A stretch of 64,000 nucleotides of DNA from an uncultured Phascolarctobacterium sp. Its GTDB lineage: Bacteria; Bacillota; Negativicutes; Acidaminococcales; Acidaminococcaceae. The notes under the pieces were generated by a model. The model saw only the letters and a list, made by a program, of their open reading frames with translations, made no database searches and was not told where the DNA came from. Numbering within the stretch: position 1 is the first letter of the stretch; every line of letters starts with the position of its first letter. Location of the stretch: NCBI RefSeq assembly GCF_934203365.1, contig NZ_CAKPZA010000012.1, one strand, 5' to 3'. Shown piece after piece: positions 35,226 through 47,152 of this stretch. The position numbers and the translations under genes were made by a program.

Positions 35226-35256
35226 TGCACGATATTCGAGTATATATTTGCTCTTC

Positions 35257-35820
35257 TTACTCTTTTCTCCAGACCATCTTATTAACCACACCAGTGTAGC
35301 TTTGGATAATCTTCACCACCATAGCAGATACGTTCTCATCTACATAATCAGGCACCGGCTGTCCGTCATCGCCATCAAGGTTCATCTGCACTGCTGTGTC
35401 TACAGCCTGCAGCAGGCTCTTTTCGTCAATGCCTGCAAGCACAAAGCAGCCCTTATCCATTGCTTCCGGGTGCTCCGTAGAGGTGCGGATGCAAACCGCC
35501 GGGAACTGATGTCCCACGCTCGTGAAGAAGCTGCTTTCCTCCGGCAGTGTACCAGAATCAGATACTACAGCAAAGGCGTTCATCTGCAGGCAGTTGTAAT
35601 CATGGAAGCCCAACGGCTCATGCTGAATTACGCGCTTGTCCAGTTCAAAGCCGCTTGCTGCCAGACGGTTGCGGGAACGCGGATGACAGGAATACAGAAT
35701 CGGCATATCGTATTTATCCGCCATTTTGTAGGATTCAGCGATAATATTGCTAATGGTGTCGCCCAAATCGCTGCCTACGACGTTCTGATCCACTTCAGGA
35801 TCTGCCAGCTCCAAATCATG
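35257..35820 (-). pseudogene. C-terminal fragment of UDP-N-acetylglucosamine 2-epimerase (WecB/MnaA family), truncated at an AT-rich junction
   Basis: Matches the C-terminal half only (VVSDSGTLPEE, CIRTSTEHPEA). The first ~23 codons of the called ORF (MTKSIKKYLKRL...) are AT-rich and unrelated. Confidence 0.6.
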
Positions 35821-36013
35821 GAAGAAGACGCCGTTCAGTGTATAATATATAATTAAGCGCTTTAAATACTTTTTAATGCTTTTTGTCAAATTCGCCTAAA
35901 GTACGCTGATAATAAACATAACTATTGCTTGAACGCAAAGAAGAGATCGATTGTTTCATTGAATATAGTGTTATAAGCAAACGACTTGCTAGAATAATTC
36001 ACTTTATAACCCA

Positions 36014-36916
36014 TTATTTCTCAGGCGCATATTTTTGCATTAAACATTGTCCATCAATTAATGCCTTTAAGTCAATAATGTCCACGATATTAAATAAATC
36101 ATTGTAAAAAACGCTCAAATATTGAATCAAATCATCAAAAATAAAATAGCATAGCGTTAATAATAGCTTTATTGCCCCCAAATTAGATTCCTCTAACCCC
36201 GCATCGCTTATTAATGAATTATATCCTTGAAACCCATGAGAGAATGAAGAAAATTGAGAATATAGATTATCATATACTACGCTCCACGCTGCTTGTGATT
36301 CGTATTTAAACAATGTATTACTCAATTGGTAAAAAGAGTTCAATTTAGAATCATATATCTTGTACCATTTATCTATCTTTTTATGTTTATCGCCTTTTCT
36401 ATAGCTTTGATTAATCTTTTCTCTATAACTTTTTCCAAGCAATAAAAAAGGATCGTTTTCATAAAATTTAATTCCGCAATTACGCATTTTCTCTAATTCG
36501 TTTAACTTCATCTCTATATTAACTGATTGAGTACTATTGCTTATTTTTATTTTTCTCTCTATATCAGCAATATAATTCCATGCTACAACATTACGATAAC
36601 ACTGCACTTTAGACGATAGTTTAGCACCATCTATTATAAAAAATAAAAACTGTATATATGATTCATACAGACTTCTAGCTAAAATTTGAGAACTGGATAT
36701 ATTTCCATGCTCTATCAATAACATAATGCTATTGAAATTTTCTTTAATGTCTTCCAAACAACGTAATACATGATGGTAAGATATAGTTCTATCGTTATGT
36801 TTAACAATCTCTTTGATAATGGATTGGAAAGTATCATCAAATACTTTAGACATAAATTTTACATCAGAAATTATATCGCTCTTAAGAAGCCAATTGTTAT
36901 TATACAAACTCTTCAC
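36014..36916 (-). CDS. Hypothetical protein (AT-rich island); possible Abi/HEPN-like (R-x4-H near N-terminus)
   Basis: 300-aa open frame in ~28% GC DNA. No confident homology from sequence alone. Confidence 0.35.
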   Translation of the reverse strand: MKSLYNNNWLLKSDIISDVKFMSKVFDDTFQSIIKEIVKHNDRTISYHHVLRCLEDIKENFNSIMLLIEHGNISSSQILARSLYESYIQFLFFIIDGAKLSSKVQCYRNVVAWNYIADIERKIKISNSTQSVNIEMKLNELEKMRNCGIKFYENDPFLLLGKSYREKINQSYRKGDKHKKIDKWYKIYDSKLNSFYQLSNTLFKYESQAAWSVVYDNLYSQFSSFSHGFQGYNSLISDAGLEESNLGAIKLLLTLCYFIFDDLIQYLSVFYNDLFNIVDIIDLKALIDGQCLMQKYAPEK

Positions 36917-37352
36917 CCCATTTAAGATTATTTACTAGAGGACGTTTACTTACAGCTATCTCAATAACATTATATATGTAATCTATCGATTTATCTACAA
37001 GAAATCTTAAGCATCAAACCAATAACTGTCAAAACACGCTTACACGAAAATGACCGCCAGCGTGAGCCTTATTCTCTGTAGTTTGCTTTGCAGTTTTCTG
37101 TACATTTTTGGATAGCAATTGTTTAACACAACTCTCTTCACCTTCTTAAAGATTCGAAGCTATGATGAGCACATACGCCAGATAGTTAAAGCTTGTTTCT
37201 TTAGCGGTTCCAATTTGACTAAAGACGGTTGCTGCTCCCTAGATATTATAACCGGCTTAACCAAATACTCTGCTATGTCATACAATGTCTTCCACTCTTT
37301 TTAGGGAAATTCTCCTGCTGATATTAGGGAATAATTACGCTTTTTCAGGTAC

Positions 37353-38474
37353 TTATATTGTATCATATACACAAATCTCGTATTTTTTGTCTAATAAAAC
37401 AGGTATATCAGGTATATTTTTTAAAGAGTATTTACGTTTCTCTATTTCAAATGCTCTGTTTATATCATCCCCTTCATTTATACTAAAACCAGAATTTGTT
37501 ATTTTATACGTATCCTTAATTCTATCTAGCACATTAGATGAAATTAAAGGTGAAATAAAAAAATCTTCTGTGTATAAAAACAATATATAATTAATTATTG
37601 TAATTTTCTCATCTAAACGCTTTCCTCTTAACTGTTTAAAAAACCTCTTATATTTTTCATTCTTTTTCTCGACAAACGCCATTATTATAGTTTTGTCTTC
37701 TAAAGGAAAAATACATAAATTCATTGTTTCTATTTTCGTACTAGCCTTAGGACTATATGTCATATTAATTAAATTTCCCTCTAGGTCTACTATTAACGCA
37801 ATCTGTCCCTGATATGCTATAGGCACTGTAAATGGCAATTCTTCATATAAACCCATATAATAATTACTATCACGTAAATTACTAATATGATTTTTGGCGA
37901 TTCTGAAAGAATTGCCTAATTCAGTTAGATCAATTTTTATATTATTTATCTGCTTGCTAGCAATATCAAACCAAAGATCATCATCTCCGTAATTCTTTTG
38001 TATGTACTTATAAGCTTCTTTTTCTATTATTCTCTTACTGATGCTCTTTAAAATGTTTTTTAGATCAATCTCTGCTAACATTTTGCTACTAGGTATTGAT
38101 TTATAGTTTGTAGGATTCTCGTATTCTCTAAATAAACTACTATCACAATCATTACAAATTATATAAAAAACACCAGCTTCAGCTATACCCTTTTCTTCCT
38201 TTTGCAATGGGGATTTTAAAATGGTATTCGCATAATATAATTTGCCGTTTTTTGCAATATTTTTTAATATGAATTGAGGAACTGTATGTGATTTACAAAA
38301 TCCATCACGATGTTTTTTACAATAAAAACACGTATTTAACTTAGCTTGCTCTCTAGCATGCTTAAGAATTTTACCAACTTCCTTTCTCTGTTCTATCGTA
38401 ATTTTATCTTCTTCAAATTCATTAGAAAAACCTAAATCTAATGATACATACATATTACGCCTCCACATATTCAA
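37353..38474 (-). CDS. Hypothetical protein with N-terminal Cys/His cluster (CFYCKKHRDGFCKSHTVP, HNH- or Zn-finger-like)
   Basis: 373-aa ORF in an AT-rich island. Confidence 0.35.
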   Translation of the reverse strand: MNMWRRNMYVSLDLGFSNEFEEDKITIEQRKEVGKILKHAREQAKLNTCFYCKKHRDGFCKSHTVPQFILKNIAKNGKLYYANTILKSPLQKEEKGIAEAGVFYIICNDCDSSLFREYENPTNYKSIPSSKMLAEIDLKNILKSISKRIIEKEAYKYIQKNYGDDDLWFDIASKQINNIKIDLTELGNSFRIAKNHISNLRDSNYYMGLYEELPFTVPIAYQGQIALIVDLEGNLINMTYSPKASTKIETMNLCIFPLEDKTIIMAFVEKKNEKYKRFFKQLRGKRLDEKITIINYILFLYTEDFFISPLISSNVLDRIKDTYKITNSGFSINEGDDINRAFEIEKRKYSLKNIPDIPVLLDKKYEICVYDTI

Positions 38475-38682
38475 TATCTAACTGCTTTTCACCCATCAGC
38501 AATCTAACCTTGCAAAGCAGCTTTTGTATTTTGTCAACCCCAATTCCTCAAAATCAGCAAATAAACTCCCTGTTTCCGTACAAATTTCGTTAAACTTCTT
38601 ATATCATTGTAGAATATAGATAACTATCTTTACTTTAATTGAACGATTTATATTCACATCAATTTTGGCACCTACAGCAAAC

Positions 38683-38716
38683 ACCGCCCTGCGCACATGC
38701 GCCTGGCGGTGTTTTT
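38683..38716 (+). terminator. Hairpin caccgcc...ggcggtg followed by TTTTT
   Basis: Stem-loop with inner gcgcacatgcgc palindrome and a T-run. Lies between the AT-rich island and the ugd remnant. Confidence 0.4.
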
Positions 38717-38732
38717 ACATTTCATTCTTTTC

Positions 38733-39967
38733 TTAGTCTCTTCTGAACAAATCTCTGGTATATACTTTTTCCTGCACATCATCCAGGCAACTGTCATAGC
38801 GGTTAGCAATAATCGCCTGACTTTCAGCCTTGAACTTCTCGAGGTCGTTTACCACAGCACTGCCAAAGAAGGTACTGCCATCCTCCAGCGTAGGTTCGTA
38901 AACAATAACCTTCGCACCTTTGGCCTTAATGCGCTTCATTACTCCCTGAATACTGCTCTGGCGGAAGTTGTCAGAGTTGGATTTCATGGTCAGGCGGTAT
39001 ACGCCGATTACAGGCTCTTTGCCTTCCTTCTGTGCATCATATTCAGCATTTGCTTCATAGCCACCGGCGATTTCCAGCACACGCTCAGCGATGAAGTCTT
39101 TACGCGTTCTGTTGCTTTCAACAATCGCTTCGATGATGTTTGCCGGTACATCTGCATAGTTCGCCAGCAGCTGCTTGGTGTCCTTAGGCAGGCAGTAACC
39201 GCCATAACCAAAGCTGGGGTTGTTATAATGGCTGCCAATACGCGGATCAAGGCAAACGCCGTTGATAATCTGCTGGGTGTCCAGTCCCTTCATTTCTGCA
39301 TATGTATCCAGCTCGTTGAAATAGGAAACGCGCAGTGCCAGATAAGTGTTGCTGAACAGCTTAACAGCCTCTGCCTCAGTGAAGCCCATGAATAAGGTGT
39401 CAATGTTCTCTTTAATTGCGCCCTCCTGCAGCAGGCCGGCAAAGGTATGCGCAGCCTTCACCAAGCGCTCGTCCTCCAGGTCGGTGCCCACGATGATGCG
39501 GCTCGGATACAGGTTATCGTACAGCGCCTTGCTTTCACGCAAGAATTCCGGGCTGAAGATGATGTTCTTGCTACCAGTTTTTTCACGGATGCTTTTGGTG
39601 TAGCCAACGGGAATGGTGGATTTGATTACCATAATCGCATTGGGGTTGTACTGCATAACCAGCTTGATTACTGTTTCTACAGCGCTGGTGTCGAAAAAGT
39701 TCTTTTTGCTGTCGTAGTTAGTCGGTGCAGCGATAATAACAAATTCTGCGTCTTTATAAGCCATTTCTGCATCCAGCGTAGCAACAAGGTTGAGGTCCTT
39801 TTCAGCCAGATATTTTTCAATATAATCATCCTGAATCGGGGAAAGCTTTTTGTTGATCAGTTCAACCTTCTCCGGATAATATCAACGGCCTTTACCTCAT
39901 TGTGCTACGCAAGCAGCGTAGCCAGGGAAAGTCCAACGTAACCGGTACCGGCAACGGCAATTTTCAT
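38733..39967 (-). pseudogene. ugd: UDP-glucose 6-dehydrogenase gene inactivated by a TAG nonsense codon (39905-39907) and a 1-nt deletion (~39872-39875)
   Basis: Manual translation from ATG 39967 gives [30 protein letters not shown]. The frame then shifts −1 into [45 protein letters not shown], which continues as the called ORF 38733..39764. Confidence 0.75.
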
Positions 39968-39994
39968 GTTCATCATACTCTTTTGTTTATATAA

Positions 39995-41060
39995 TCAGCA
40001 GTTATAAAATTTCTTGTACCATTCAGCAAATTTGCGCAAGCCTTCGCGCAGCGGTGTGCTCGGTTTAAAGCCAAAGTCGCGCTCCAGCGGTGATGTGTCT
40101 GCATAGGTTACAGGCACATCACCGGGCTGCATGGGTACAAGCTTTTTGTGTGCTTCGAAGTCATAATCAGCAGGCAGTACTCCTGCGCGCAGCAGCTCTT
40201 CCTGCAGGATGGTCACAAAGTCCAGCAGGTTTTCGGGATGGCTGTTGCCAATGTTATATACCTTATACGGCGGCAAGGGCAGTCCGTCCTCGCCCACCTT
40301 GCGCTCAGGCGGTGCCTGCATTACGCGCTTTACGCCTTCTACGATATCGTCAACGTAGGTAAAGTCGCGCTTGCAATTGCCGTAGTTAAAGATTTCAATG
40401 GTTTTGCCTGCCAGCAGCTTGTTGGTGAAGCCAAAGTAGGCCATGTCCGGGCGGCCTGCAGGACCATATACGGTGAAGAAGCGCAGTCCGGTTGAAGGAA
40501 TGTTGTACAGTTTGCTGTAGGCATGTGCCAGCAGCTCGTTGGATTTTTTAGTTGCTGCATACAGCGATACAGGGTTATCTACCTTGTCATCAGTAGAATA
40601 CGGCACTTTTTTGTTGGAGCCATATACGCTGGAGCTGGAAGCATATACAAGATGCTCTACGCCCTTGGCTCCGTTGTCATAGGAGTGGCGGCAGGCTTCC
40701 AGTATGTTGTAAAAGCCAATAAGGTTACTTTCGATGTAGGCATCCTGGTTGGTGATGGAATAGCGCACGCCTGCCTGTGCTGCCAGGTTTACTACTATTT
40801 CAGGCTTGTAGTCGGCAAAGATTTTGTCGATGAGTGCTTTGTCAGCCAGGTTGCCTTTGATGAAGGTACACTAGGAGTCGCTGTGCTCGGCAGCGCTGGC
40901 AGCAATCTGCTACAGACGGTATTCCTTGATGGATACGTCGTAGTAGTCGTTCATGTTGTCCAGACCGATGATTTGCACCAGTGACATGGAGCGCAAAAGC
41001 TCCAGAACAAGGTTGCTGCCGATGAAGCCGGCGGCACCGGTTACTAAGATTGTTTGCATG
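39995..41060 (-). pseudogene. NAD-dependent epimerase (UDP-glucuronate 4-epimerase-like) with two in-frame TAG codons (40900-40902, 40861-40863)
   Basis: Manual translation from ATG 41060: MQTILVTGAAGFIGSNLVLELLRSMSLVQIIGLDNMNDYYDVSIKEYRL*QIAASAAEHSDS*CTFIKGNLADKALIDKIFADYKPEIVVNLAAQAGVRYSITNQ..., continuing in-frame into ORF 39995..40768. Confidence 0.7.
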
Positions 41061-41278
41061 ATATACATATCTCCTTACACGAGCATAATAGTATGCTATA
41101 TTATAACACAGTTTAATAAAAATTGCTTAAATGCTTTGTGAAAATTCATTTAAAAACATTGATAATTCAGGCTTGTACTTGAATTTAATCTCAAGAAAGT
41201 CAAGAAAGCTAATGTAATTCTGATAAAAGCATCACCTTTAATCGCTATACTGTTAATAAGAATAACTTCCAGAAAAAA

Positions 41279-42208
41279 TTAAAGAAAGTTTTCAGCTTTA
41301 AAATTAATATTTTTTATGTTTCTATGTTGCTTCGAAACACATTTGAATTTCTCAGGATCAAATATTGCGTAATTAATTCCGCCTTCATTTATAGTGCTCT
41401 TATACTTTATTCCATCATAGCCAAGGTTTTTTATATAATCAGCAATATACTGTGTTGGTACATAATCTATGTCTTTATCAAACCTTCTCATAGGTTTAGA
41501 AATCTCTTTTGCTATTTGCTTGATAGCTTCTATATTTATTGCAAACCATGTAAGATCAACATCTTCATATTGAAAAGGAGTTATGCTATCCAAATAACAC
41601 AAATCAATAATATTTAATGGCACTATATTTTCAAACACGCCTAAAGTAATATGGTCATAAACTCTAGCCCGCACCTCATGAAACGTAGTTATATCGCTAT
41701 CAGCCAAATATAAACACGGAATACCCTCTGAATTAATTCTTCCAGCAGTGGCAACATTTTTAGGCGGAGCTCCTATATCCTTATCGTCTTTATATCCTAT
41801 ATCATAATGTGCTGCATCGCATATTCTTGCACGGAATAAGGATAATTTCCCGCTAGGAATTTCCAGTTTTAAAAATTTCAGTAATTCTGTTAACTGCTCT
41901 ACATTAACCTCTGATGAATGGAATCTATTATGATACTTGATGTCCTCGCAGAATTCTTTTCAACTATACTTTTTTAATATAGCAGACTGATTTATATATT
42001 TTTCATTTAAAAATTCGCTAATTATAACATTCTCAGTAAAAATCTGCGCGTTTTCATCTAATTTAGAATGAAATATGGCCTTTAAAATGATCTCTATATC
42101 ATGGCTTTTTACACTAAACATATTCCATTTTTCCAAAATATCATACAGGCTAGCAGAATACTTTTCTACTCCTTGAATATGCTTCATGGAACTAACAGGT
42201 GTAAACAA
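41279..42208 (-). pseudogene. RES-domain protein (putative NAD+-targeting toxin) with ~90-aa N-terminal extension, interrupted by an in-frame TGA at 41960-41962
   Basis: ORFs 41960..42208 and 41279..41707 are in the same frame. The 75 codons between them are open and carry the RES signature (...ATAGRINSEGIPCLYLADSDITTFHEV...) but have no ATG/GTG/TTG start. Confidence 0.55.
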
Positions 42209-42366
42209 GTCTAAAATTTATTCTAAATAGGGCAATAATTCCTCATTTGTGTTGCTATCATATACATTTTGATTTTCTGATTTTGTTATTTCGCAGGTTC
42301 CTACATTGTGTAAGGAATCAACTATAGATTTAAATGTCTTGTCGGAGAAACAGTTCGATCCTATTT

Positions 42367-43305
42367 TCATTTTATTTCTCCCAAACGTTTACTCATTAAT
42401 TCTAAATGATGCATAATGGAACATTTTTTGACTACTCCTAAACCAGGAAATCTACCTTTATCACAATAATCATAAAACGCTTTTAATCCCTTGGTTTCTT
42501 GAATCTTATTCTCTATGCACCAATGCTTTAGCTCAGAAACAGCTTCACCAAATTTACCGGCAATATCTCTGTTATTAATATTGTGTTCCGAAACAAAATG
42601 ATGTACTCTTAAATCATCATCAGAGCTTAAATAGACTATATGAATAGCTACAGCTATAGGAGCAAATCCAGATTCACTATATTCTGAACCTACTATGGAA
42701 TAATCCGAAAACCCACTATAGCCTTCTTCAATATACTCCCTATGCCAATCAGAAAAAAATTCATCTGTGTTGTTTTTGTAGTCAACATTACGCTTTTGCT
42801 TAATAAACGAATCTTCTAAGATGATTTTTTCACCTTTAACATTTCTCTTGATACTTCTTCTGTCAGGGATTATTGTATATAATGGTTTTTCGTTTTCATA
42901 AGCTTCTAAATAACTACTTATATCATCCACAGAGTCAATTATCGCAATACTATTTTTCATGTCATTAACAACTATTTCGTTATTATCCTGGAATAAATAC
43001 GCCTTTATGACATTACCTTTTTCTAATTCAATTTTTAATTTTCCATACAGTGAATTTTCATCCAACTTCTCTTCCTCCATGCTTACTGGATACGCACCCA
43101 CAGACGGATTTTGGACAAAAACAAGTTTATGATTTTTCTTATTAAATAACTCTACTGTTTTTAAAAGAGAGGAAGATAGCTTGACAGGTTCAATTATAGG
43201 TATAATATTATTCCCTAATAAATCATTTTCCAATAATTCTCTTAATGCGATTAATTCAAATTGTCTACCACGTAAAAAAGGAAAATACATATTATACACC
43301 TCCAC
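42367..43305 (-). CDS. Hypothetical protein, 'sce7725-family'-like (N-terminus MYFPFLRGRQFELIALRELLEN)
   Basis: 312 aa, AT-rich. 14-nt overlap with the upstream PD-(D/E)xK gene. The family assignment is from memory of the N-terminal motif, not a search. Confidence 0.45.
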   Translation of the reverse strand: MEVYNMYFPFLRGRQFELIALRELLENDLLGNNIIPIIEPVKLSSSLLKTVELFNKKNHKLVFVQNPSVGAYPVSMEEEKLDENSLYGKLKIELEKGNVIKAYLFQDNNEIVVNDMKNSIAIIDSVDDISSYLEAYENEKPLYTIIPDRRSIKRNVKGEKIILEDSFIKQKRNVDYKNNTDEFFSDWHREYIEEGYSGFSDYSIVGSEYSESGFAPIAVAIHIVYLSSDDDLRVHHFVSEHNINNRDIAGKFGEAVSELKHWCIENKIQETKGLKAFYDYCDKGRFPGLGVVKKCSIMHHLELMSKRLGEIK

Positions 43306-44245
43306 ACTTTTGCCTTAAATAAAAGTCAAGATTTTTATAATCTTCTTGACTAAAATTCAGAAAGTATACTAAAAATTTTAATTCTATAGGAACATTACTA
43401 AATTCATTTTTCGTCACTTTTACTCGTTTTTTTAAGAGTTTTAAAAAATTACTATATATATAATCGATAGGAATCTTTAAAAATTCTTTTTTACATTCGC
43501 TATAATGATTGAACGAATTAGTTTTTGGCAAACTACCAAAATAATTCATCAAAATGCTTTGATATTCTTCCTTTCTCAAAATCGAAAATATAGTTTCTTT
43601 GCTTAATCTATTTCTATATGCTTTGGGCTTCTTTACAGTGCTAATGGCTCCATTCTTCTTAATATAATATATTCCTACAGGTTTACTCAGATTAGCTATT
43701 AGCTTTTCTATTGCTTCTAGATTATCCTCATAGGTAACCACAGCTACATGGTCAAAAGCAAGATAGTAATCATTTATTTGAGATTCCAGGCGCTCCAAAT
43801 TATCTAGTTCTGTCTTAATTTCATAAACCACTGCTTTACCATTTATCATTAAGAAATCAGCTTTAGAATTAGCTATAGGCAATTCAGTTAAAGCTGTAGT
43901 AGTATTAACACTATGAACTCCTAGCAAAAGCTTGTTAAGCAACGTATTTTTATAATAATATTCATTTCTGTAACTCTTCTTTAAAACATCGTATATATGC
44001 TTAAATAAGTCGCCGTATGATTTATTATTCAGCTCATATTGCTGTACAATATAATTTAAATTATCATTTTCTCTAGCAGAAACTATATCCCTAAGAACAT
44101 TGCGAGTGAATATTTTGTTTAGTATGCTCATATTTTTCATCATTTTAAATTCACCCTTCCATAGTTTCTTAGTGAGAATCTGCAAAAAATCTGTTCTTTC
44201 AGTAAAACCTAGCCAAAGTATCTTGTACACCAAAAGCATAGTCAA
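43292..44245 (-). CDS. PD-(D/E)xK nuclease-fold protein, 'sce7726-family'-like
   Basis: Core motif ...SKADFLMINGKAVVYEIKTELDNLE (D...ExK). 317 aa. The true start is probably the internal MMKNMSIL. Confidence 0.45.
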   Translation of the reverse strand: MTMLLVYKILWLGFTERTDFLQILTKKLWKGEFKMMKNMSILNKIFTRNVLRDIVSARENDNLNYIVQQYELNNKSYGDLFKHIYDVLKKSYRNEYYYKNTLLNKLLLGVHSVNTTTALTELPIANSKADFLMINGKAVVYEIKTELDNLERLESQINDYYLAFDHVAVVTYEDNLEAIEKLIANLSKPVGIYYIKKNGAISTVKKPKAYRNRLSKETIFSILRKEEYQSILMNYFGSLPKTNSFNHYSECKKEFLKIPIDYIYSNFLKLLKKRVKVTKNEFSNVPIELKFLVYFLNFSQEDYKNLDFYLRQKCGGV

Positions 44246-44494
44246 AACAAGGAACCATAAAATGTTTTTCTTTTGTTTCTATCTCATTCAAAGACAAAAA
44301 TTTATCAGAAAATATATTACGCTTATATAATATATTATACACTACTACAGTTAAATCAACAAATCATATATGACACACTAAAAGATACGTTTCTTCCATC
44401 CAACTCATAAGAACTCTTCTGCAAATTCTAACGAACTCTAAGATGTAGTTTCATATAGTTTCCTATAAAGCGCCTTGTAAATCATGATATATTT

Positions 44495-44526
44495 AGCGCC
44501 TGCCATCTGGCAAGCGCTTTTTAATC
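44495..44526 (+). repeat. Second copy of the rpn-terminator hairpin (agcgcctgccatCtggcaagcgcttttt), orphaned from any + strand gene
   Basis: 27/28 nt identical to 35194-35221. Single difference in the loop. Confidence 0.6.
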
Positions 44527-45436: not shown

Positions 45437-46393
45437 CTATTTCCTTAGGGGAATCTCTGAGCATATTACTTTTGTATTTGCATTAGCTACGCCATTCTTC
45501 TTCAGAGCACGTACAAAAATTTCTTTTAATTGTTCAGCATTGCTGCTAGGGCCTATGATGATTCTGTCAAGTAATTCATTTATCTTGAGTTTACGATTAT
45601 TATATTTTATCTTCGAAAAGTTTAGTTTCTTAACTATCCGCGGTACACCATTTATAACTTCTATGTTTTCTTCGATTATCTCGCTAAGGCAATTTCCATA
45701 CAGAGATTTATTATACAAAACTCTCCATTCACATTCTTCCTCAAAACCTTTATGTTTTAAACTTAGCGCAGTCATAAAGAATTTATCTAATATGTAACTA
45801 TCAAAATTAGGCACCATCTTTAATATTTCACAATCATCTTTTAGTCTTCTAGTAAATTCCGAAATGGCATGACTAAAATCATTTTTATTAAAATAAAACA
45901 TTGGGATTGTCATAACATTTGTATTAACAGCTTCTTCTAAAAACATTGATGTATTAAAAACAAGAGCAACACCATTATTCAATCCGTATGCACGCCACAT
46001 TGATAATCTGCCATACTCATCTTCTTCCTTTGTATGTTCAGTCAAACAAAAAGCATAGGTATTCATCAAGTGAGAACTCTGATGATCATAATACTGTTCT
46101 AAAGTATTTGTACAGCCTTTATGTATCTCATCCATTATTTCTCGCAGTTCTCCACCTGTATCATTTTTATAAAAATCCATCAACAGTCGGTTGCCTATTT
46201 CAATTTCACTGTAATCGTTCATATAGCATACATTGTTTAGCCATATAGTCTTGTTTTCAATAATGCTAAGAGCTACAGCAGCTGATGTATAATGAGCTAA
46301 TCTTATATTTTTAGTTTTTAAGTTATCAACTCTATCCAAGTATTCTTTGTAAATTATCTTGTTTATTATTTCTTGGCTATACATTTCTATCAC
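45437..46393 (-). CDS. DUF2971-family protein (HYTS...ND..E signature; defence-island-associated family)
   Basis: The LAHYTSAAVALSIIEN...CYMNDYSEIEIG pattern matches DUF2971 from memory. AT-rich. Confidence 0.45.
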   Translation of the reverse strand: MIEMYSQEIINKIIYKEYLDRVDNLKTKNIRLAHYTSAAVALSIIENKTIWLNNVCYMNDYSEIEIGNRLLMDFYKNDTGGELREIMDEIHKGCTNTLEQYYDHQSSHLMNTYAFCLTEHTKEEDEYGRLSMWRAYGLNNGVALVFNTSMFLEEAVNTNVMTIPMFYFNKNDFSHAISEFTRRLKDDCEILKMVPNFDSYILDKFFMTALSLKHKGFEEECEWRVLYNKSLYGNCLSEIIEENIEVINGVPRIVKKLNFSKIKYNNRKLKINELLDRIIIGPSSNAEQLKEIFVRALKKNGVANANTKVICSEIPLRK

Positions 46394-46474
46394 CTTACGT
46401 TATCCTAATTAAACATTAATACAATGTTTAGTTTTACTCTAATATCATTCCCTTAGTACTATTAAAACATGCCT

Positions 46475-47152
46475 TTATTCTATCAATCCTTCAAATACTC
46501 CATCTCTCGGAGCATTCTCTTCACATTCACTTATCCATTTGCCTAATTTGTTGATAGCTGCTTGAACCTTTGCTTTAGTCAAACCTTCCTCAGCAGCTTT
46601 ATCCCAAAGCCACTCAAAAAATAAATTTATGTCTTTAGGATAGCAAACACCATCATTATCTAATAAATGGTTTAATTCCGGACTCATGGATTTATTACTT
46701 GAGTACGAATCACTAAGTACTCTAATATCCCATCCTTTTTCTGTCCTTGTAATTTTATAATGCTCAATATATTGCCAGCGTCTTGTAAAAAACTTCAATG
46801 TAAATGTCTTGCCTATAGTTTTATCTTTAGAATTATCATTAATGTGAACATCATCTATAAATGCCAGCAAATCCTGAACCGGATGTACGTGCCTATAAAA
46901 GCGTACATCATCAGGTGTACACTCTCGATTTTCAATCATATACTTATGATGCTTAGGCTCATGACCGCTGTCTTTTAAAGACATATGTAATTCATGAGCT
47001 TTTCTAGCCATTTCGTCATAAAGCCTACTAGCATCATCACCAGAAAGTAACTTTTGGTCACTTTCTATGTATTGCCAAATTTGGTTATGGAGGATTTCAA
47101 GTTCAGATTTAAGCTTTGTTTGAGATTCCGTTAATTTTAATTTTTTAGGCAT
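46475..47152 (-). CDS. Hypothetical protein
   Basis: 225-aa AT-rich ORF. No recognisable motif. Confidence 0.3.
   Translation of the reverse strand: MPKKLKLTESQTKLKSELEILHNQIWQYIESDQKLLSGDDASRLYDEMARKAHELHMSLKDSGHEPKHHKYMIENRECTPDDVRFYRHVHPVQDLLAFIDDVHINDNSKDKTIGKTFTLKFFTRRWQYIEHYKITRTEKGWDIRVLSDSYSSNKSMSPELNHLLDNDGVCYPKDINLFFEWLWDKAAEEGLTKAKVQAAINKLGKWISECEENAPRDGVFEGLIE

Follow-up and report, generated by a model that had tools for sequence, protein, structure and literature searches.

The 64,000-nucleotide stretch of DNA analyzed here (hereafter the window), from contig NZ_CAKPZA010000012.1 of an uncultured Phascolarctobacterium sp., carries at 41279-44245 on the minus strand a block of three abutting, co-directional reading frames, which encode an sce7726-family protein (gene 1), an sce7725-family protein (gene 2), and a RES-domain protein (gene 3). 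The explanation that we consider best, with a probability of roughly 0.6, is that this triad is a sister of the gop-beta-cII system of satellite phage P4 in which an aRES-type NAD+ phosphorylase stands in for Gop, that it probably works by abortive infection, and that this strain carries it in an inactive form.

The triad is a strictly conserved unit. A one-genome-per-species scan with an sce7725 alignment returned 158 relatives, and in the best 80 of these 158 loci, which were kept, an sce7726 homologue lies immediately upstream of sce7725 in every case (80/80) and a homologue of the window RES protein immediately downstream in 78, with the start and stop codons of RES and sce7725 mostly overlapping or abutting. 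Among the sources of these triads are Lachnospiraceae, Oscillospiraceae, Paenibacillus, other Bacilli, Megasphaera, Melainabacteria, Treponema, Odoribacter, and Anaerolinea, the same gene order is also annotated in an integrative and conjugative element (ICE) of Salmonella houtenae and on plasmids of Moraxella, Rhizobium, and Shinella, and the three proteins are listed together in an integrative mobilisable element (IME) of Pseudomonas aeruginosa (PMC9394441). Intact triads include that of Moraxella osloensis plasmid pYHS1 (WP_060994622/621/620) and SEHO0A_04578-80 of S. houtenae. Approached from the RES side, all three distant relatives checked (a Flavobacteriales member, one on a 1.28-Mb contig, and one annotated with PF18870; 29-36% identity) again sit in a triad. 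This strict co-inheritance, together with the fusion into an operon, argues that the three genes are one functional unit. Among 2.9 million IMG/VR contigs only two triad loci were found, each at a contig end, so the triad is not typically phage-borne and is instead chromosomal, plasmid-borne, or ICE-borne. Look-ups by exact protein found no strain with an empty site lacking the cassette.

An earlier note on this DNA had described the block as a co-directional, tightly packed, AT-rich operon made of an sce7726-like gene with a D…E-x-K nuclease core, an sce7725-like gene, and a RES gene, and in this it holds up well: all three genes lie on the minus strand, the GC content of the cassette is 28-32% compared with about 50% in the adjacent sugar-nucleotide genes, and both family assignments are confirmed by curated profiles. 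Gene 1 matches NCBIfam NF033832 (sce7726_fam; curated cutoff 70 bits) with 191 bits and 1.8e-56 over model positions 1-183 of 184, and gene 2 matches NF033831 (sce7725_fam; cutoff 60 bits) with 333 bits and 1.8e-99 over positions 1-310 of 312. What needs revision is the position of the two starts, which the earlier note had placed at 44245 and 43305. The likely start of gene 1, judging from the N-termini of homologues, is the ATG at 44143, which has a GGAAGGG ribosome-binding site ahead of it and gives a protein of homologue-like length, while ATG 43290 is likely the true start of gene 2, yielding the family-invariant N-terminus MYFPFLRGRQ. The operon promoter presumably lies in the region between galU and gene 1, and a GC-rich hairpin follows the galU stop codon.

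The connection to P4 runs through genes 1 and 2. P4 cII matches the NF033832 model at 2.5e-44 and hence is itself an sce7726-family protein, gene 1 matches the PADLOC model 'cll' (PDLC02989) at 2.2e-19, and PF26915 (Phage_P4_cII) is annotated on the gene 1 homologue from an identical locus. In an alignment of 19 diverse family members including P4 cII, residues E87, D96 (in K-A-D), and E108-x-K110 of gene 1 are invariant, as are D114, R118, and Q122, and together these appear to form a PD-(D/E)xK-like signature, which bears out the nuclease-type motif of the earlier note. P4 beta belongs to the Pfam family Beta_protein (PF14350, 4e-56), and a relationship of sce7725 to it emerges by degrees. 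Gene 2 has no match to the Pfam or PADLOC beta models at E values up to 0.01, its BLASTP comparison with P4 beta gives an E value of 0.38, and hhalign and BLASTP runs from small alignments aligned the N-terminal 33-48 columns only, with probabilities of 2.5-44%. Among 26 sce7725 members, 22 give sub-threshold matches to PF14350 (best 4.7e-4), other families being matched by at most three of the 26, and an hhalign comparison of sce7725 with beta from larger alignments (197 vs 119 sequences) gives a probability of 65% and an E value of 6e-5 over 267 columns. The two families have in common an N-terminal motif, Y-[FY]-P-x-L-R-x-R-x-x-E, and a motif near the C-terminus, G-[LM]-x-[TS]-x-[KA]-K-[YW]. 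In the BFVD library, the models of sce7725 and P4 beta have identical top two neighbors, the Gordonia phage Powerball protein A0A5J6TRS2 (7.9e-9 and 1.5e-12 for the two models) and A0A516MBS4 (4.1e-4 and 3.8e-4), and these are the sole BFVD matches below 1e-3 for the gene 2 model. These profile, motif, and model comparisons support a distant homology between P4 beta and sce7725, which has a TIM-barrel-like predicted fold.

The gop-beta-cII system protects against phages lambda and P1, with Gop being toxic when beta is missing (Rousset et al. 2022, PMC9122126; DefenseFinder Rst_gop_beta_cll); a phage accessory gene has been described that triggers cell death through this system (bioRxiv 10.1101/2023.04.06.535777), and the lambda-family orf184 acts as a trigger of gop-beta-cII. 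Like the triad, it consists of three genes, has a cII component that falls in NF033832 as gene 1 does, a middle protein of about 310-355 residues with a predicted TIM-like alpha/beta fold, and a toxin as its third gene, and both systems are found on mobile elements. The triad differs in that its toxin is a 363-residue RES NAD+ phosphorylase rather than a Gop protein of 109-161 residues, and in that its taxonomic range is much wider than the Proteobacteria. The statement in the earlier note that the cassette matches no named system is right in part. The cassette has no gop and a different gene orientation, and the searchable literature yielded no description of the triad, which newer defence catalogues may list; the statement overlooks that gene 1 corresponds to PADLOC cII, that P4 cII lies within the sce7726 family, and that sce7725 is probably a distant relative of beta.

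The third gene, as the earlier note recognized, encodes a RES domain: residues 203-348 of the conceptual gene 3 product match Pfam RES (PF08808) at 2.5e-17 with 63.8 bits (cutoff 23.2). RES residues R211, E232, and S325 (window numbering) are constant across the family. A homologue search with this product returned 137 relatives, most of which have 340-370 residues and span the full query, and the RES gene elsewhere is normally one long open reading frame (ORF) fused to its N-terminal region. That region had been described as a unique segment of about 90 residues, which is mistaken, as it spans about 190-200 residues and is conserved in more than 100 homologues. It includes two conserved cysteines, C7 and C26, and resembles a zinc ribbon followed by HEPN/RES-NTD1, giving an overall architecture of a Cys-rich N-terminus, a helical N-terminal domain, and RES. 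Nine of 14 RES relatives match PF18870 (HEPN_RES_NTD1; best 4.4e-5), and two carry the annotation; some NTD1-RES proteins are known to bear an additional zinc ribbon (Anantharaman et al. 2013, PMC3710099). The aRES proteins, defined as NTD1 plus RES in 300-600 residues, convert NAD+ to nicotinamide and ADP-ribose-1''-phosphate, arrest growth, and protect E. coli against phages, and their N-terminal region keeps the enzyme silent without an antitoxin (Osterman et al., bioRxiv 10.64898/2026.01.28.702374). The RES protein of the triad is similar to aRES in having ahead of RES a region that resembles HEPN/RES-NTD1, in its length within the 300-600-residue range, in its defence-island context, and in its expected chemistry of NAD+ to nicotinamide and ADP-ribose-1''-phosphate, and the earlier suggestion of a defence based on NAD+ depletion is plausible, as the same RES architecture is that of an anti-phage NAD+ phosphorylase. 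It is dissimilar in that aRES is 'not operonically associated' and stands as a single gene, whereas the triad RES is start/stop-coupled to two conserved genes, gene 3 overlapping the stop of gene 2 and the arrangement recurring in 78 of the 80 loci. Intact alleles encode 363 residues, while the window gene is interrupted by two stops and inactivated, and the window sequence is without the PF18870 match that its relatives have.

Two other known systems offer comparisons. P4 beta (L001, 651-1718) matches PADLOC PD-Lambda-2_C at 8e-14, and in the PD-lambda-2 system the beta-like PD-lambda-2C is required for defence and dispensable for toxin neutralization (Vassallo et al. 2022, PMC9519451). This provides a precedent for a P4-beta-like third component in an accessory or sensing role, though its partners there are a HigB-like toxin and an Xre-peptidase, with neither a cII-like protein nor RES. 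Beta-like proteins are thus found in at least three differently armed systems, with Gop, with HigB/Xre-peptidase, and with RES. The type II toxin-antitoxin systems Xre-RES and MbcT-MbcA also have a RES NAD+ phosphorylase (PF08808) as their toxic activity, but the triad RES is about twice as long, has a conserved N-terminal region of about 200 residues, and has two unrelated partners. No Xre/DUF2384-type antitoxin lies beside gene 3, which has sce7725 on its upstream side and, downstream, a sugar epimerase gene, and no match to a helix-turn-helix or Xre family was found there.

In the window, gene 3 reads as a recent pseudogene beside two intact partner genes. Its start, ATG 42370, overlaps the stop of gene 2 (ATGA), and the frame runs from there to 41279, 364 codons counting the final stop. 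The earlier note had seen it split by one in-frame TGA; this TGA is real and, in comparison with L004, the intact contig closest to the window, arises by G>A at 41960 and replaces W137, which is nearly invariant in the RES family, and it is accompanied by an in-frame TAA, arising by C>T at 42220, in place of Q51, which is present in every intact homologue of the strain cluster. An intact 363-residue protein, P0001, is 99% identical to the conceptual gene 3 product. Exact copies of the 307-residue protein from gene 2 are found in 101 blocks of the contig collection, and in seven of the eight places shown among these 101 blocks, the identical sce7725 protein is accompanied by an intact 363-codon RES ORF with CAA and TGG at the two positions; the locus is intact in sister contigs L002-L009, L011, and L012. 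This intact RES gene beside an identical sce7725 gene in sister contigs is what marks the window copy as a recent pseudogene. Contig L004 is 98.75% identical, with 12 substitutions in the RES gene, of which four alter the product relative to P0001 (two nonsense and two missense), and since there are only four product-altering changes, the RES gene was evidently subject to purifying selection until recently. The same broken allele, 100% identical to the window, is present in ENA assembly ERZ28613651 (L010, also L101) and in Logan ERR7738626 (L102). Hypermutation or deaminase editing as the source of the stops was considered and ruled out, as a comparison with L002-L004 shows an ordinary spectrum in which transitions run both ways.

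The part of gene 3 after the TGA was said to have no start codon of its own, which is correct as far as TTG 41707, the first in-frame start, which leaves a residual ORF of 142 residues. This late TTG lies downstream of the invariant G210-R211-x-N213, so no catalytically competent fragment can arise. That the effector gene is inactivated therefore stands from the earlier note, which had left open truncation or a need for stop read-through, and it is as a pseudogene that it is inactivated. With its RES effector dead, the cassette in the window is a relic, the system being almost certainly non-functional in this strain, a decayed defence module, and the intact genes 1 and 2 may simply not yet have decayed.

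In an intact triad, we propose that the RES protein would be the effector. On perception of a phage cue, RES would phosphorolyse NAD+ to nicotinamide and ADP-ribose-1''-phosphate, and the loss of NAD+ would arrest the cell in abortive infection. Sensing of the cue, or licensing of the effector, would fall to the beta-like TIM-barrel protein together with the cII-like protein and its PD-(D/E)xK motif, as a module that holds the effector silent until infection. The nuclease/sensor pair that the earlier note saw in genes 1 and 2 is likewise an inference. By analogy, a sensor or accessory role for sce7725 seems somewhat more likely than that of a classical antitoxin, given what was found for PD-lambda-2C and the fact that aRES is autonomous, and an antitoxin role is still viable because of the ATGA coupling and the P4 precedent. 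A broader proposal, which we hold tentatively and at slightly worse than even odds, is that the cII-like and beta-like proteins are a portable module for phage sensing or licensing that arms interchangeable toxins, namely Gop in P4, RES here, and, for the beta-like part alone, HigB/Xre-peptidase in PD-lambda-2, and that the RES triad is a distinct, widespread, and unnamed abortive-infection system.

Several observations weigh against a gop-beta-cII sister system armed with an aRES-type effector. None of the three cassette proteins matches PADLOC gop, which P4 Gop matches at 4.8e-70, and the homology between sce7725 and beta falls short of the curated cutoffs in Pfam as well as in PADLOC. The triad is co-directional in the order cII-like, beta-like, toxin, whereas in P4 gop is followed by beta, with cII alone convergent, and the canonical layout in Pseudomonas, Methylibium, and Acinetobacter is likewise a gene for a protein of 109-161 residues followed by beta, with cII convergent. 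Profile searches with all three cassette families against PDB sequences returned no relatives, for gene 1 no solved one, and its PD-(D/E)xK assignment would follow from the motif and not from the fold. The window RES sequence has no match to PF18870 at E values up to 1, and since aRES is described as standalone, the RES protein may not need partners at all. The roles suggested for genes 1 and 2 are drawn by analogy, the presence of triads on plasmids and ICEs fits an addiction module equally well, and the three broken-allele assemblies, being 100% identical, may derive from one host or sample.

Table 1 Features of the cassette in the window and variant copies of the triad elsewhere
Feature	Coordinates	Strand	Remarks
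Gene 1, sce7726-family / P4 cII-like	43292..44143	-	283 residues with the likely start; longest ORF extends to 44245
Gene 2, sce7725-family, intact	42367..43290	-	307 residues with the likely start; predicted TIM-barrel-like; probable distant relative of P4 beta
Upstream intergenic region, AT-rich, galU to gene 1	44144..44526	-	Consensus promoter-like sites predicted from sequence
Gene 3, apparent pseudogene of 363-residue RES-domain NAD+ phosphorylase, aRES-like architecture	41279..42370	-	Single-frame translation with two stops
First in-frame stop, TAA, codon 51	42218..42220	-	CAA (Gln) in intact alleles
Second in-frame stop, TGA, codon 137	41960..41962	-	TGG (Trp) in intact alleles
RES domain-coding part, codons 203-348	41327..41764	-	Pfam RES match
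L086			RES remnant only
L027			sce7725 split, RES truncated
L045			sce7726 split
L022			RES absent
E. faecium plasmid p114-2 (L096)			RES absent
Arthrobacter plasmid (L100)			Shortened 156-residue sce7725, then directly an IS3 transposase gene
L110			2-bp deletion in sce7725, RES unchanged

Decayed copies of the triad are not rare (Table 1). In locus L110 (3077-4004), comparison with L109 shows that the deletion falls in an A-run and splits sce7725, and the adjacent RES gene encodes an identical intact protein; if real, this would mean that sce7725 is not an essential antitoxin, and an assembly error is equally possible. In the Lachnospiraceae locus L061 (5142-8912), the sce7726-sce7725 pair is followed not by RES but by genes for a Macro-domain protein (1.6e-46), which begins within the stop of sce7725, and then an ADP-ribosylglycohydrolase (2.7e-39), and these replacement genes are likewise related to NAD+ and ADP-ribose.

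RES domains are classical toxins of toxin-antitoxin (TA) systems (Xre-RES, MbcT), and the triad could be read as a three-component TA addiction module with RES as the toxin, sce7725 as the antitoxin, and sce7726 as a regulator, in which case the loss in the window would be decay after the element became fixed in the chromosome. Triads on plasmids and on ICE and IME elements would fit this, as would the neutralization of Gop by P4 beta and the ATGA overlap, a hint that gene 2 and RES are translationally coupled, and so would the repeated loss or breakage of RES with retention of the pair (the window, L086, L022, and the E. faecium plasmid). We nevertheless consider an addiction module unlikely, since the RES protein has the aRES-type N-terminal region, by which aRES is silenced with no antitoxin involved, the beta-like PD-lambda-2C is not needed for toxin neutralization, the context in sister strains is that of a defence island, and L110, a single and unverified case, has a frameshifted sce7725 beside an unchanged RES; TA function and abortive infection can, moreover, coexist. 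The linkage might instead be incidental, a self-sufficient aRES gene having come to lie next to a separate sce7725/sce7726 two-gene system. The working of aRES as a single gene, the NCBIfam description of sce7725 and sce7726 as a pair, and pairs without RES (E. faecium p114-2, L022, and L061 with its Macro and ADP-ribosylglycohydrolase genes) all point that way, but RES lies directly downstream with overlapping or abutting codons throughout nearly all of the loci kept, in several phyla, and the distant RES relatives checked sit in triads without exception, which makes incidental linkage quite improbable.

Two further explanations concern the state of the RES gene in the window rather than the nature of the triad. 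The contig is from a metagenome-assembled genome, and the assemblies sharing the broken allele might represent the same host material, so the stops could be assembly or sequencing artifacts in a triad that is really intact. This we judge very doubtful: both stops stem from substitutions (C>T, G>A) rather than indels, the mutation spectrum around them is ordinary, the broken allele recurs under different accessions, and the pseudogenes of the adjacent epimerase and ugd genes are common to independent samples (L007, as well as L005 and L011 with a different stop). Of the stop codons TGA is the leakiest, and the RES domain-coding part after it is otherwise unchanged, from which one could suppose that RES is functional here through read-through, recoding, or internal re-initiation. 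Such rescue is hardly credible, because TAA and TGA are both in frame, the sister alleles have ordinary Gln and Trp codons (CAA and TGG) at these positions, there is no start between the TGA and TTG 41707, which is past the catalytic Arg motif, and the neighboring genes use all three stop codons normally; recoding and read-through are ruled out by the two different stops and the sister alleles, and with them the idea in the earlier note that the effector needs stop read-through.

The surroundings of the cassette vary. Sister strains have a defence island at this site, comprising an OLD-type ATPase and UvrD helicase, reverse transcriptases, a Schlafen-like helicase, and DUF5677 and DUF2971 proteins, and the upstream flank differs between Phascolarctobacterium strains. 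Upstream of galU, contigs L007 (1-5400) and L011 (1-5300) have an OLD-type ATPase/TOPRIM and UvrD pair, Gabija-like, and a 901-residue Schlafen-group helicase, and the window has heptose genes and DUF2971 at that place instead; defence-type genes thus vary at a hotspot upstream of galU. The window has two AT-rich minus-strand genes (45437-47152) between galU and the genes for heptose biosynthesis, encoding a DUF2971 protein (45437-46393) with a weak match to PADLOC PDC-S31 (3e-4) and a 225-residue protein (46475-47152) with a below-threshold match to 'integron cassette protein'.

Downstream of the cassette, at 38733-41068 on the minus strand, lie two pseudogenes, a UDP-glucuronate-epimerase-like gene with two in-frame stops and ugd, which has a single nonsense codon plus a 1-bp deletion near 39875. 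In L005 and L011, the epimerase gene has a different stop (Tyr to stop) from that in L007 and the window, which points to independent inactivations of the sugar pathway, and since different mutations occur in another sub-lineage, gene decay in the locus is real and recurrent. Farther along, an AT-rich stretch at 35249-38729 that the related contig L002 lacks has genes for a DUF5677 protein (36014-36916) and for a 373-residue protein rich in Cys (37353-38474) that has no Pfam or PADLOC match, and this stretch may represent a further insertion of accessory or defence genes. An imperfect 19-nucleotide direct repeat (15/19 match, CATGATATA...) at 41057-41075 and 44483-44501 brackets the cassette nearly exactly and is probably a chance occurrence in AT-rich DNA; no other flanking repeat was found, and neither an integrase nor a tRNA gene lies next to the cassette.

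The locus as a whole sits in a hypervariable lipopolysaccharide/polysaccharide and defence island of a human-gut Phascolarctobacterium, and the window cassette should be annotated there as a defence locus that has decayed and is effector-null. That a whole branch of RES proteins with a similar build belongs strictly to a three-gene operon, across several phyla, qualifies the account of aRES as standalone. The gop-beta-cII system is a validated anti-phage system whose three proteins are without known biochemistry, and a sister system with RES chemistry, if that is what the triad is, would allow activation to be measured and the part played by the beta/cII pair to be tested, with NAD+ loss and ADP-ribose-1''-phosphate as the first biochemical read-out for the firing of a gop-beta-cII-type system.

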